From IMG/VR virus record IMGVR_UViG_3300044676_000300, positions 1 through 36,803 of that record: a stretch of DNA of 36,803 nucleotides; one strand, written 5' to 3'. Positions 21,057-29,623 of this stretch are shown in pieces. The DNA is from a virus (Duplodnaviria; Caudoviricetes). The translations under genes and the position numbers were made by a program. The notes beneath the pieces are model-generated. The model made no database searches. It was not told the origin of the DNA and saw nothing but the letters and a program-made list of their open reading frames with translations. Position 1 is the first letter of the stretch, and each line of letters opens with the position of its first letter.

Positions 21057-21397
21057 TCTACCCTCACCACATGATCGATCTCACCATCAATGTCTGCTTT
21101 GACCTGTAGAGGTAATACCTTGCCCATGAGGCTCATGAATGCTGTTGGTTGTGCTTCTGCCATGATTTGCAGGTAAGCTGTCATGCCATCTTTTCTGGCT
21201 TGTTCCACGAAACGCTGGTCAGCTTCTTCTTTGCTTTGACCATATAGCTTTTCTACCATTGCCTGCCCTGATCTCTCAGCAGCAAGTAAAATGCTTTCTT
21301 TCATCAGCTTTGTTGTTTTGTTGGGTGTGCCTCTCTTACGGCCTGAACCCTCTACTTTAGAAGAATGTTCCTGTTTCGTACTCATAGTACCGTCCAT
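21038..21397 (-). CDS. terS: Terminase small subunit (alternative start 21385)
   Basis: GRKRGTPNKTT and FMSLMGKVLP motifs; overlaps the terL start. Confidence 0.8.
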   Translation of the reverse strand: MDGTMSTKQEHSSKVEGSGRKRGTPNKTTKLMKESILLAAERSGQAMVEKLYGQSKEEADQRFVEQARKDGMTAYLQIMAEAQPTAFMSLMGKVLPLQVKADIDGEIDHVVRVEWQPPH

Positions 21398-21441
21398 TGT
21401 GGGTGCGTCTATATGTTGTAGATAATAGCGTAGAAGATACT

Positions 21442-21492
21442 AAAAAAAAAGACCCCCTGATGCACATAGAGAAAGGAAGCGATCAGAGGGCC
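21442..21492 (-). terminator. Intrinsic terminator (3' hairpin of the sRNA) upstream of terS
   Basis: GGCCCTCTGAT/ATCAGGGGGTC 11-bp stem (two G-U pairs) followed by 9 T. Confidence 0.75.
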
Positions 21493-21538
21493 AGTTATAT
21501 GAGGCAGACATAACAGGGAGGGTTTCATGTCGCCCTGT
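21442..21538 (-). ncRNA. Putative ~95-nt two-hairpin small RNA with anti-Shine-Dalgarno loops
   Basis: Extended -10 TGgTATTGT at 21543-21551; hairpin 21502-21536 with loop AACCCUCCCUG; hairpin 21451-21492 with loop containing UUCCUUUCUCU, followed by U9. Confidence 0.7.
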
Positions 21539-21561
21539 CATGACAATACCATAATTTATCA

Positions 21562-22056
21562 TTATTCTCTATGGGTCAAGGGTCTGTGTGCGTCGATATA
21601 TACCAAGTATGGCGCAAGTTCGTCTTCAGTCACCAAACCCTCCCGAACCATACGCTCTGCCAGCTTTCCTTGGATGTACATCTGACCTACTGGCTCACCT
21701 GCTTTGATCCGCTTTGCATTGATCTCTAAGCTATCTGGCTTCCACGTAGCGTTACCGCTTGGCAGTGACGACTTGGATGTACTCATAGACTTGGATACCG
21801 CTGCGCTAATATCTGCCGCTGTGGGCCATGTACGGGACTTGTGCGCTTCTTTGAGTTTTAGCATTGCCCGATCCATTGTGCCACGAATGTGATCCTCTGT
21901 GGTATCGTTAGGGAACTTCTGATTTAGCATACGCACAATGTTACGCGCTTCGTCTTCTTGCTTTGCTTGTGTATTTAGGTGCTTGGGCGTTGCATATCCC
22001 TGCATCATCTTAATTAGTTCGCTTAGAATAACTCTTGTTCTTTCTTCGTAAGTCAT
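21562..22056 (-). CDS. Replication-associated protein, putative helicase loader (164 aa)
   Basis: ATGA-coupled behind the initiator (lambda P position); RTWPTAADI resembles the xPTxAxI motif of loader-type proteins. Confidence 0.5.
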   Translation of the reverse strand: MTYEERTRVILSELIKMMQGYATPKHLNTQAKQEDEARNIVRMLNQKFPNDTTEDHIRGTMDRAMLKLKEAHKSRTWPTAADISAAVSKSMSTSKSSLPSGNATWKPDSLEINAKRIKAGEPVGQMYIQGKLAERMVREGLVTEDELAPYLVYIDAHRPLTHRE

Positions 22057-22706
22057 ACTTCTACCTCATCTTCCCAGCGTTCCCCGTTTAGCCATGTCGC
22101 TAAGTGCGGGATAAATTGTTTATCTTTACCTTCTAATGTTTGCACATAATCCATCAGCTTTGGAAGTAGATCATAAAAATCTTTCTTCTTCGAAGCTGCC
22201 TTGAATGCCTTACGTGCCTGACCCTTGCCAACCTTTCTAGGATACAAAGACCATAACTGATCAAAGTAATAATCTACTTCATCGTCAGATGATGATTTAT
22301 TGTTATTACTTCCAAGGTTATTTATTCCAAGGTTATTCATGCGCAGATTTTGCGTATACCCATGCGCAGATTTTTCGCATACCATGCGCAGATTTTGCGT
22401 ATCGGTGTCCGTCGAACTATTATGCTCAGTAGTTCCCAGTAATTCTAATACGTAACTATTAGAGGTTTTGCCCCCACGGTCACGAAATTGGTTGAAGCGT
22501 TTAATTAATCCTATCTGTTCTAAGACTGTTAAATGACCCTCAACTGATCTGCGCGACATTTCGCAGACGTTTGCAAGATGTTTGATGCTGGGGAAACATT
22601 GGCCTGTTTCTTGATTGTGGCAATCGGCTAACCAATACAACACAATCTTAGTCGCAGGTTTCAAACCTTGTTGCTTCATAGCTAAAGCTGTCATATAGTG
22701 GGACAT
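22053..22706 (-). CDS. Replication initiator / replisome organiser (lambda O-like; winged HTH) (217 aa)
   Basis: CFPSIKHLA..CEMSRRSV wHTH; FDQLWSLYPRKVGK and PHLATWLNGERWED C-terminal domain; internal iterons. Confidence 0.85.
   Translation of the reverse strand: MSHYMTALAMKQQGLKPATKIVLYWLADCHNQETGQCFPSIKHLANVCEMSRRSVEGHLTVLEQIGLIKRFNQFRDRGGKTSNSYVLELLGTTEHNSSTDTDTQNLRMVCEKSAHGYTQNLRMNNLGINNLGSNNNKSSSDDEVDYYFDQLWSLYPRKVGKGQARKAFKAASKKKDFYDLLPKLMDYVQTLEGKDKQFIPHLATWLNGERWEDEVEV
22310..22403. repeat. Iterons of the putative replication origin
   Basis: Three tandem CATGCGCAGATTTT(G/T)CG(T/C)AT units starting at 22338, 22361 and 22383, plus two TTCCAAGGTTATT at 22310 and 22325 next to an AT-rich tract. 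Confidence 0.85.
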
Positions 22707-22744
22707 GAGAATACTCCTTGCTATTGTTCTCTTATATCGCTCTT

Positions 22745-22772
22745 GACCCTCAGTTCACGCTGGGGGTCTTCT
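22745..22772. terminator. Hairpin between the cro-like gene and the initiator
   Basis: GACCCTCAG-TTCACG-CTGGGGGTC; weak U-tract; pairs better on the + strand. Confidence 0.4.
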
Positions 22773-22957
22773 CATTCTGCATCCATCAAATAGTCTGACA
22801 ATGCTTTCACAGTATCATAGCTAACATTGCCGACATTGTCACGAACACGATAGAATGTGTGGCGCGAAATGCCTGTAGCATCACATACCCGCGCGGGCTG
22901 TCGATCCTGAATTGCTTTTCGTACATACTCTAAGTTGTACATCATATGTGCGTTCAT
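22772..22957 (-). CDS. Cro-like HTH regulator (61 aa)
   Basis: Start reassigned to ATG 22957 (RBS GGAG); VCDATGISRHTFYRV HTH and TVKALSDYL terminal helix. Confidence 0.8.
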   Translation of the reverse strand: MNAHMMYNLEYVRKAIQDRQPARVCDATGISRHTFYRVRDNVGNVSYDTVKALSDYLMDAE

Positions 22958-22985
22958 TTTTTTCTCCGTTCGATAACATATAGGG

Positions 22986-23017
22986 TTGTATCTAGGATAC
23001 TTATCGATTATGTACAA
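22986..23017. promoter_or_regulatory. Overlapping divergent promoters with palindromic operator
   Basis: + strand TTGTAT-N17-TATGTA; - strand TTGTAC-N17-TAGATA; dyad GTATC-TAG-GATAC at 22988-23000. Confidence 0.5.
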
Positions 23018-25890: not shown

Positions 25891-25919
25891 TTGCATTGTA
25901 TCACACATGATACTATTAT
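25891..25919 (+). promoter_or_regulatory. Early sigma70-type promoter P1 with spacer operator
   Basis: TTGCAT-N17-TATTAT; perfect dyad GTATCA-N4-TGATAC at 25898-25913; AT-rich upstream region. Confidence 0.75.
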
Positions 25920-25951
25920 AATTGTATAAGCTACAGAGAAAGGGGCTTTTT

Positions 25952-26662
25952 ATGAAAAACGTAATTCCAAATCCAGTTAACAACGGCACAGCCAAAGCAC
26001 ACCGCAACCGCTACTGCGGCCCAGCAGTCATCAGTTCACTAACTGGCATGACTACTGCCGAAGCTGCCCGCCTATTGCGTCACGTATCAGGCAAGCGTTC
26101 TATCACTGGCGTTGCTACCCGTCACCTTTTGCAAGCGTTGAAGATGTGCGGCATTCACATCACCAACAAAACCTTTGACCTGTCAGACAACCCAACACTC
26201 ATCCGCTTTATCGAAAGCGACGACAGATCACCTTGCGTCACACACCTGATCGTTGCTGGAAATCACTTCCAGCTAGTGCGCGACAACAACTTCGTCTGCG
26301 GTAAAACCAAAGACTTGGTGTCATTCAAAGACAGCCGCGTCAAACGCCGCGCCCGCGTTAAACAGGTGTTCGAACTTGTGACCGATGGCATCGTGATCCC
26401 TGACGAAGCCCGCAAGCCTGTGCGCACCGTGCAGAACAACGAAACACGCATCAAGTGCCACAAACTAGCCAAGCAGCTAGGCATGACCATTGACGTGACT
26501 TACAACGTCTACGGCTGGAACTACTGCATCTGCGCCGAAGAAGACTACACTGCAATGGGTGTGATCGATGGCTGTAACTGCGACGATTGGGATGAGGTGT
26601 ATGCCAAGCTCCAGCAGATCGAAGAATATGAGATCATGCAATTGGTCAGTTCACTAGCGTGA
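25952..26662 (+). CDS. Early protein with papain-like (C39-type) Cys/His peptidase motifs (236 aa)
   Basis: NRYCGPAVISSL helix and LIVAGNHFQLV strand; ATG 25952 behind RBS AGAGAAAGGGG. Confidence 0.55.
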   Translation: MKNVIPNPVNNGTAKAHRNRYCGPAVISSLTGMTTAEAARLLRHVSGKRSITGVATRHLLQALKMCGIHITNKTFDLSDNPTLIRFIESDDRSPCVTHLIVAGNHFQLVRDNNFVCGKTKDLVSFKDSRVKRRARVKQVFELVTDGIVIPDEARKPVRTVQNNETRIKCHKLAKQLGMTIDVTYNVYGWNYCICAEEDYTAMGVIDGCNCDDWDEVYAKLQQIEEYEIMQLVSSLA

Positions 26663-26794: not shown

Positions 26795-26825
26795 TTGCAA
26801 TGTCTCACGTATGCGACTATATAAT
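26795..26825 (+). promoter_or_regulatory. Early sigma70-type promoter P2 with spacer operator
   Basis: TTGCAA-N17-TATATAAT; dyad GTCTCA-N4-TGCGAC; 20/26 identical to P1. Confidence 0.75.
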
Positions 26826-26853
26826 AGTTATAGCAGAGAGAAAGGAACAAGCT

Positions 26854-28396: not shown

Positions 28397-28503
28397 TCGT
28401 GTGGGCGGCTGCTTAGTGTCGGGATAAGCTGGGGATGACCAACAAAAACGATGGTATCAACCGCCCACCGCGACAAGATAACAAAAACAAAAGTGAGGAC
28501 AAG

Positions 28504-29406
28504 ATGTCTGTTATACAAAGATACGAAAAAACAGTAAATTATTTGCGTGAAAACTTGCACATAAACTCTGAAGCATTGTTTGACCAAACAAATGACCCAA
28601 ACCCACACATTCCATGCCCCAAAATGACACAGGGTCAATTAAACCAACTTATTTTGCACGATTTAATGCAAGATACGCATTGCTTTGAAATACCCCCAGA
28701 AGTTTATAACGTCACACGCGATTTTGTAGACGACAAACTTCTTAAACATTCTGATCAAATTTTAGACGAAGAATACAGACCTTTAGCTGACAAAATGTTT
28801 GTGACGTTTGTTACGCAAAGCATACCTGATAATATGCTGTCGTTTTGGATCACGCAAACTGAACCAAACATGTACGAATTTCATTACGTCCACAAAGATG
28901 GTAAAATGTCTGATATGGGTCAAGTAAGAATTGGTGGGGCTAACATATGGTATCCATCGGGCAAAATCGGTATTCCAGAAGAAGAGGCGCAGGCAAATTT
29001 AACGTGGGAAAAAAATATGATCCCACACGTTTTAACTACCATTGCTGCGATAAAAAACACAAATTTCGTAAAGTATGAACCAGCAGGTACACGACAACAA
29101 AGAAAATCAGCACATCGCGGTATGGGAATGGCAATGGACGCTTGGCACCGTGTAACTTGGAACATTGACGACGCAAAAAAAGCAAAAGTACCTTACGATG
29201 AAGGCTACCACAAAATGCCATTACACTGGAATAGAGGCCACTGGAAGCGCGCAAAGGAACACCACCCTAAATCTCAGCAAAGACCACACGCATTAAACGC
29301 AGAAGATCGGAATATGTGGTGGACATGGGTTGACGGTTATTGGGCTGGACATCCAGCTTTTGGCTTCAAAAAACAATACCATGCACCAAAGCTAAAGGTG
29401 AACTAA
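28504..29406 (+). CDS. Phage protein with HxxRGHW motif (300 aa)
   Basis: LHWNRGHWK...WVDGYWAG C-terminal motif; start ATG 28504 with RBS GAGGA. Confidence 0.7.
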   Translation: MSVIQRYEKTVNYLRENLHINSEALFDQTNDPNPHIPCPKMTQGQLNQLILHDLMQDTHCFEIPPEVYNVTRDFVDDKLLKHSDQILDEEYRPLADKMFVTFVTQSIPDNMLSFWITQTEPNMYEFHYVHKDGKMSDMGQVRIGGANIWYPSGKIGIPEEEAQANLTWEKNMIPHVLTTIAAIKNTNFVKYEPAGTRQQRKSAHRGMGMAMDAWHRVTWNIDDAKKAKVPYDEGYHKMPLHWNRGHWKRAKEHHPKSQQRPHALNAEDRNMWWTWVDGYWAGHPAFGFKKQYHAPKLKVN

Positions 29407-29407
29407 T

Positions 29408-29623
29408 ATGGAATTTTTCACGTTACTGTACATAGAATATGCGCTGCGTGGGATTGACATTAAGACGTATTTGATTTTGCCAGACTATGAGGCTTGTCAA
29501 ATAGCAATCCGCGACAATGAAGATATGTACAAGTATTTCCGCTCAGATAGCGATGTTGATATGTATTGTATACGCACCAACACGCTATCCAGATCAATAA
29601 AACCTGTCTTGCGCTCTAGTTAG
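29408..29623 (+). CDS. Hypothetical protein (71 aa)
   Basis: Adjacent to the upstream stop; two-Cys pattern (YEAC...MYC). Confidence 0.65.
   Translation: MEFFTLLYIEYALRGIDIKTYLILPDYEACQIAIRDNEDMYKYFRSDSDVDMYCIRTNTLSRSIKPVLRSS

Follow-up and report, generated by a model that had tools for sequence, protein, structure and literature searches.

Genome context of the locus

The window, i.e. the whole virus record of 36,803 bases, has 58 ORFs whose PHROG matches follow the layout of a short-tailed marine phage; portal, capsid, terminase, O-like replication initiator, SSB, NinB, RusA and endolysin genes were assigned in this way. Neither an integrase (by PHROG) nor an antirepressor was found among the 58 ORFs. 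No close cultured phage was detected: the best TerL match reached 48%, capsid matches stayed below 45% and the 164-aa protein had none. Five cellular relatives of the replication initiator come from Donghicola, Roseovarius, Thalassobacter, an uncultured member of the Rhodobacterales and one alphaproteobacterium; the host therefore likely belongs to the Roseobacter group.

The element described here follows a minus-strand operon with genes for a Cro-like protein, the replication initiator and the 164-aa protein, and precedes terS (Table 1). Its predicted targets are genes of the opposite strand, which we call 'early' on the basis of their putative promoters and position. One of them encodes a 236-aa protein (25952-26662), common to 49 viral loci, with a conserved NRYCGP motif and a later His; it has no Pfam or PHROG match, and a Cys-His catalytic pair is a guess. 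Another early gene, coding for 323 aa (28480-29408), is skipped in contigs from two RNA runs and is therefore regarded as an accessory cassette gene.

Table 1. Features of the locus and its predicted targets, in window coordinates
Feature	Position	Strand	Remarks
U9 tail	21442..21450	-	sequence
Predicted primary sRNA, ~95 nt	21442..21536	-	ends predicted; fold z = -4.06; match to model R1 at 21438-21554, by construction
Terminator hairpin	21451..21492	-	z = -5.96; both sides changed in 5/12 pairs; 92% of cells paired
Loop 2 (seed 2), UUCCUUUCUCUAU	21466..21478	-	UCCUUUCU within it is identical to the 16S tail in the probable host family
Pairing part of loop 2, UUCCUUUCUCU	21478-21468	-	
Stem-loop 1	21502..21535	-	primary-transcript fold; loop 21524-21514 exposes CCCUCCCUG
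Alternative helix	21509..21542	-	21542-21533 pairs with 21518-21509 in 5′-extended (read-through) RNA; hides seed 1
Anti-SD seed 1, CCCUCCCUG	21522-21514	-	in loop 1; family-wide CCUCCC
Extended -10, TGGTATTGT	21543..21551	-	sequence; without consensus -35 at 17 bp; predicted start ~21536
Upstream operon	21562..22957	-	read-through ending at the element's terminator predicted from gene order
164-aa gene	21562-22056	-	upstream operon
Replication initiator gene	22053-22706	-	upstream operon
Cro-like HTH gene	22772-22957	-	upstream operon
Putative early promoter 1, TTGCAT-17-TATTAT	25891..25919	+	palindrome GTATCA-N4-TGATAC between boxes, 25898-25913
Predicted target 2	25935..25945	+	RBS of gene 25952 (236 aa)
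Putative early promoter 2, TTGCAA and AT-rich -10	26795..26825	+	imperfect palindrome copy, 26802-26817
Predicted target 1	26837..26847	+	RBS of gene 26854 (137 aa, no Pfam match)

Anatomy and conservation of the element

The preliminary description, made from the sequence alone, placed an extended -10, two stem-loops and a U9 tail on the minus strand of this gap, and all of them were found within 21551-21442. Folding of the 99-nt minus strand returned the two hairpins at -32.3 kcal/mol (z = -4.06, with none of 200 shuffles as good); the z-score of the plus strand of the same region was -0.69. The promoter resembles an ordinary extended -10 and lends no support to the late timing that the preliminary description proposed. 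Another promoter proposed by a scanner, TTGACC-17-AATTAT, was set aside because its TTGAC lies within coding sequence and the spacing is not conserved among relatives.

Assembled contigs from three RNA runs cover small parts of the region; cover of the neighbouring genes is patchy too. One contig of 154 nt (21368-21521) spans the U tail, in a form that gives neither ends, strand nor level.

No gathering-level Rfam match was obtained for the window or for 17 loci; weak matches to Methylobacterium-1, NsiR1, sX11 and anti-hemB were terminator-like and far below threshold. A BLAST search of the element against 50,697 phage records gave no match, nor did a search of 61 genomes of the probable host family with model R1, run without a positive control.

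Relatives were collected with three proteins as queries (TerL, the 164-aa protein and the first early protein) and with two DNA patterns. The 305 loci with the 164-aa gene yielded 150 distinct downstream (junction) regions, of which 110 contain CCTCCC. In 63 of the 150 a TGnTAnnnT sequence stands 15-45 nt upstream of CCTCCC, as compared with 4.3% of random windows; the spacing from the -10 to CCTCCC was 17-26 nt in the 47 measured. CCUCCCU is invariant across 17 aligned members. Five of the 12 pairs of the terminator stem changed on both sides in relatives, a check that the preliminary description had proposed; we cite co-variation for the terminator helix only, the register of consensus helix 1 being different from that of the single-sequence folds. 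In four genomes (L021, L025, L276 and L141) the upstream gene is replaced, yet the element still precedes terS and therefore behaves as a gene of its own. We conclude that it is a real, conserved and previously undescribed sRNA-like element.

The same four genomes have the early/replication block inverted or moved relative to the terminase, and their early leaders share CGAAGGGAAA, for which no matching loop was found there. After the 164-aa gene, L140, L147, L152, L161 and their relatives carry promoter-hairpin-terminator units in two tandem copies, the first of which overlaps the stop codon of that gene. In terminator loops of L164, L196, L147 and L021 the pyrimidine seed is replaced by GCUCC (anti-GGAGC). 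A wider architecture, a CCUCCC loop followed by AACU and a GC-rich terminator (L202-L316), was matched in at least 119 viral stretches, among them numerous contigs of unrelated phages and prophages, both GC-rich and GC-poor; it has no Rfam family.

Predicted pairing of loop 2 with early ribosome-binding sites

The preliminary description had loop 2 pairing with the RBSs of two early genes. The pairing was reproduced at both sites: with the RBS of gene 26854 all 11 of 11 positions are Watson-Crick pairs, and with that of gene 25952 nine are Watson-Crick and two are G-U. The window contains two exact copies of AGAGAAAGGAA and no more, at 21468 and 26837; the site at 25935 differs from it by two A-to-G changes, both compatible with G-U pairing. 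Under a simple interaction model that includes opening energies (accessibility), genes 26854 (-14.4 kcal/mol) and 25952 (-10.2 kcal/mol) took first and second place among 51 called start regions, the ranking that had been expected. Late genes with AAAGGAA scored weaker (capsid, -4.4; 167-aa gene, -4.7; 164-aa fibre, -2.7 kcal/mol).

The earlier reading had missed that loop 2 holds an 8-nt copy of the ribosome's own anti-SD: the 16S gene in the probable host family ends with GGATCACCTCCTTTCT, and AGAAAGGA is simply a strong SD. Matches with at most two mismatches show no excess in the window (nine, against a shuffle mean of 9.0). A shuffled loop reached 11 nt in 50 of 5000 trials; when the 8-nt 16S-tail core was held fixed in the same shuffle, 11 nt was reached in 519 of 5000 (P ~0.11). 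Because eight of the 11 bases copy the 16S tail, the 11-nt match in this genome alone is only suggestive. The window by itself makes a weak case, which therefore rests on comparative data.

The 8-nt copy (the 16S genes of the probable host family end GGAUCACCUCCUUUCU, with six matches continuing CTTTCTA) is also what a general anti-Shine-Dalgarno sRNA would carry, one that mimics the 16S tail, acts on host messages and matches phage sites only as a by-product of strong host SD sequences. For the element as a whole we consider this unlikely, on account of the comparison described below.

Co-variation of loop 2 and RBS across lineages

Genomes were compared if at least 6.2 kb of upstream sequence was available; among the 79 distinct ones, 14 have a terminator loop of pyrimidines and 65 lack it. 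All 14 pyrimidine-loop genomes carry an 11-14 nt perfect complement of the loop at an RBS of their own, which bears out the loop/RBS co-evolution anticipated from the window. The matching start regions are leftward, i.e. oppositely transcribed to the element, and belong to early or recombination genes. Four types of complement were distinguished: type A, GAGAAAGGAA (six genomes including the window); type B, AAGAAAGGGAA (one genome); type C, GG-A5/A6-GGA (six genomes); and type D, AAAGGAAAGAA (one genome). The 14 genomes thus represent four lineages only, two of them single genomes, and start codons were called by a heuristic.

Loops paired with sites of another type never exceed 10 nt, so that 0 of 122 cross-type cells reach 11 nt; types A, B and C had been noticed before this matrix was run. 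In a quick TerL tree of 56 genomes with TerL (13 of the 14 loop genomes among them), the four types occupy separate lineages: A and C form clades with support, B branches as the sister of A, and D falls among loop-less genomes. Type B has GAAAGGG in at least seven early leaders, where type A leaders have GAAAGGA.

In type C the best target, also missed earlier, is the gene that opens the leftward recombination operon. Here a change of loop length by one base is accompanied by a change of the site: a 5-U loop goes with a 5-A site (L205, L253), and a 6-U loop with a 6-A or G+5-A site at the same orthologous gene (L244, L415, L416, L420, L418, L342). The L418 match requires one G-U pair; L343 is an exception, with a pairing base lost and a match of 10 nt.

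Outside the element, 26 matches of at least 11 nt were found in 273,245 bases; 20 of them are antisense and immediately precede a start codon, 19 of these 20 on the leftward strand. With the 16S-like core held fixed, the match beyond the core is not significant for type A (P = 0.11-0.25). The corresponding values are 0.082 for type B and 0.009 for type D; the 6-U form gives 0.006-0.064, and the 5-U form, for which the probe was extended to the whole loop, 0.0003 or less. Multiplication of the least favourable P per lineage gives ~1e-5, if the lineages are independent.

When the whole junction region of loop-less genomes was compared with their own leftward start regions, 0 of 65 showed an 11-nt match. 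The loop probes themselves do match some of these 65 genomes (type A, 2; a second type A probe, 0; type B, 0; 5-U, 1; 6-U, 13, eight of which are one related group; type D, 3), and such RBSs can therefore exist without the loop.

The failure of cross-type pairing, the length change U5/A5 and U6/A6 that tracks a phage gene, and the matching of types B, C and D to their own sites in bases that are not 16S-like all stand against loop 2 as a mere imitation of the ribosomal tail. Self-targeting of early genes by loop 2 appears well supported by comparison, and we regard the element as a probable self-targeting phage sRNA.

Pyrimidine loop 2 is absent from most family members, and early leaders are repeated within each genome, even where the matching loop is missing (L041). 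Both facts would fit an ordinary terminator of the replication operon whose functionless loop was copied by recombination from the repeated leaders. The identity of loop and leader is limited to the loop and ends at the stem, though, and the best match of lineage C lies outside the repeated cassette. Termination, moreover, needs neither a conserved extended -10 nor an invariant CCUCCC loop, and the element persists when the upstream gene changes. Such an origin is therefore highly improbable.

We give the least credence to a brake in cis, where the 3′ tail of the cro-rep message would fold back onto the RBS of its own operon's first gene. Start regions of the own operon do match the loop over 6-10 nt (9 at the cro-like gene of L161, 10 at the last gene of L126), but in every one of the 14 genomes the best leftward match in trans exceeds them in length (11-14 nt) and in strength; in the window the energies are -16.0 kcal/mol in trans and -7.7 kcal/mol for the own operon.

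A third loop, ACUGCUUUUU, is conserved in two lineages (the L033, L346, L452 and L460 groups). It has no consistent phage target, with two start-region matches; in L346 and L452 one start region is matched by 12-13 nt.

Loop 1 and its predicted gating

Fold predictions suggest that the exposure of seed 1 depends on the 5′ end of the RNA. For the window, the unpaired probability of CCUCCC was 0.36 with the 5′ extension and 0.98 without it, and 26 of 38 distinct 5′ domains were predicted to switch seed 1 likewise. On average, CCUCCC had an unpaired probability of 0.42 when the true extension was present; a shuffled extension gave 0.83 and that of another member 0.79. In the predicted read-through helix, CCCUG and its 3′ flank are paired with the stretch that separates the -10 box from the start site; across members the alternative helix is formed by several pair types. 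In the fold model, then, CCUCCC is hidden in read-through RNA and exposed only in RNA from the element's own promoter, which adopts another helix.

CAGGGAGG does not occur elsewhere in the window, leaving seed 1 without a phage target there. For this reason seed 1, present family-wide, is probably host-directed, and the 16S-tail reading probably holds for loop 1, not for loop 2. Start regions in two Rhodobacterales genomes match ACAGGGAGG in 11 cases and GAGAAAGGA in five, against none in the controls for either; the 11 start regions are evidence for the existence of such sites and no more.

In the L147 group, loop 1 is a longer pyrimidine stretch, but it does not follow the early sites (best matches of 6-9 nt in seven genomes).

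Putative promoters and operators, and the late motif

By eye, a palindrome between the -35 and -10 of early promoters was seen in nine of the 14 genomes, in types A, B and C, and a related half-palindrome is present in the divergent cro region (22985-23001). The palindrome is likely the operator of the Cro-like protein. Its position at early promoters suggests that this protein represses early transcription separately from the sRNA.

Just before the first late gene the minus strand carries GACGCACCC-N4..8-GGACGG (21390-21409), kept in nearly all relatives and whichever gene follows; an AT-rich -10-like box precedes it, with no good -35. It is a candidate late-promoter, translational or packaging signal.

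The arrangement of these sites bears on a further alternative, according to which a phage protein binds the purine motif as DNA, repressing the early promoters and activating the late one, and RNA pairing is incidental. The motif stands at positions ~+5 to +16 of early promoters and ~60 bp upstream of the late promoter, the targets are mostly first genes behind promoters, and 13 of 14 genomes have the loop at a distance of 67-73 nt from the late GCACCC motif; co-variation within a genome would be seen with a shared DNA site too. In L161, however, this distance is 176 nt, and the late motif is kept in lineages that lack the purine motif. The purine motif is non-palindromic and exactly fills the loop of a co-varying hairpin, types A, B and C all have a separate palindrome between the -35 and -10 of early promoters, and the tolerated differences include A-to-G, as G-U pairing would allow. 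We therefore hold a protein-binding DNA site to be quite improbable.

Proposed mode of action

The reading that we favour, and consider reasonably probable from the sequence comparisons, is a phage-encoded sRNA with two seeds, whose terminator loop would pair in trans with the phage's own early RBSs and block their translation. Loop 2 would bind the short leaders of strong early transcripts, preventing ribosome loading. Two sources would supply the RNA: transcription from the element's extended -10 promoter, and the cro-rep message, of which it would form the 3′ end. With loop 2 predicted open in both forms, it would build up as the replication genes are expressed and the genome is copied. Damping of early leaders would come on top of the repression of transcription exerted at the palindromic operators. 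Loop 1, which is predicted to be open in the own-promoter form alone, is probably directed against host messages that carry GGGAGG-type sites, in the manner of AbcR1/2.

A bolder and rather doubtful extension is a two-way timer in a lytic phage family: co-evolving loop 2 would shut off the early programme of the phage itself as well as that of superinfecting kin of the same type, and the gated CCUCCC would act on the host.

Relation to known systems

The preliminary description likened the element to cuckoo/CcsR-type sRNAs, a label that does not hold. Cuckoo, CcsR (RSs0680) and alpha-r14 are described as having CCUCCUCCC in every loop of two to four hairpins (PMC4615179); that sequence is absent here, the loops being CCCUCCCUG and UUCCUUUCUCUAU. 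Adjacent hairpins, C/U-rich anti-SD loops, variable (here co-varying) stems and an alphaproteobacterial setting are shared with the sRNAs so described, whereas the second hairpin of the element is a terminator (PMC4615179). The cuckoo/CcsR/alpha-r14 Rfam models gave no match in the window at E up to 10 or in 20 loci at E up to 0.5.

AbcR1/AbcR2 (alpha-r15) of Sinorhizobium meliloti come closer. By the account in PMC8844928 they act on RBSs through the independent motifs CUCCUCCC (aSD1) and UUCCCCUC (aSD2) and repress transporter and metabolic mRNAs. Like the element they are ~100-120 nt long with two single-stranded anti-SD motifs, the first in a 5′ hairpin loop (PMC8844928), and both loops of the element are predicted by the fold model to be open in the primary transcript. 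AbcR1/2 as described are chromosomal with host targets, while the element has different motifs and no Rfam match; the second seed, which lies between stems in AbcR1/2 (PMC8844928), occupies the terminator loop here and matches genes of the phage itself. By analogy, the element may work like AbcR1/2 without being a member of that family.

Phages P1 and P7 encode the C4 antisense RNA, which acts in trans by pairing. Small ImmI differences are described as the basis of C4 heteroimmunity (PMC6906374), and in this shift of specificity between relatives C4 resembles the element. P22 sar and lambda OOP are likewise phage RNAs that silence phage genes by pairing, both described as cis-encoded (PMC12197685). 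Sar, OOP and C4 control lysogeny or antirepressor genes, unlike the element, in whose genome no integrase was found among the 58 ORFs; the Rfam C4 model had no match in the window.

VpdS of VP882 is described as affecting host and phage mRNAs (10.1101/2024.10.31.621285) and lambda PreS as targeting mainly host genes (PMC12197685). Both are encoded by phages, base-pair with mRNAs and contribute to the lytic cycle, as the element would; by their descriptions, an anti-SD seed co-varying with phage early sites distinguishes the element from them (10.1101/2024.10.31.621285; PMC12197685). The T4 endoribonuclease RegB is reported to inactivate early phage mRNAs at an SD motif (PMC1702504), with a protein nuclease in the place of the base-pairing RNA proposed here (PMC1702504).

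No paper on the element, or on a phage sRNA seed co-varying with early RBSs, was found in the mostly open-access literature covered. Four short probes were absent from six supplementary files of a large viral RNA screen (PMC10690425).

Few phage sRNAs have known targets, and in the cases compared above the targets are mostly host genes or antirepressors, or the action is in cis. An RNA silencing the phage's own early leaders in trans would, if true, be an RNA counterpart of T4 RegB. The gating of the family-wide CCUCCC loop by the 5′ end is a new prediction of the fold model; if real, it would let one locus produce two RNAs of different reach. The four seed/RBS types and the one-base length change are natural compensatory pairs, an allele series that can therefore be tested by reporters without culturing the phage.
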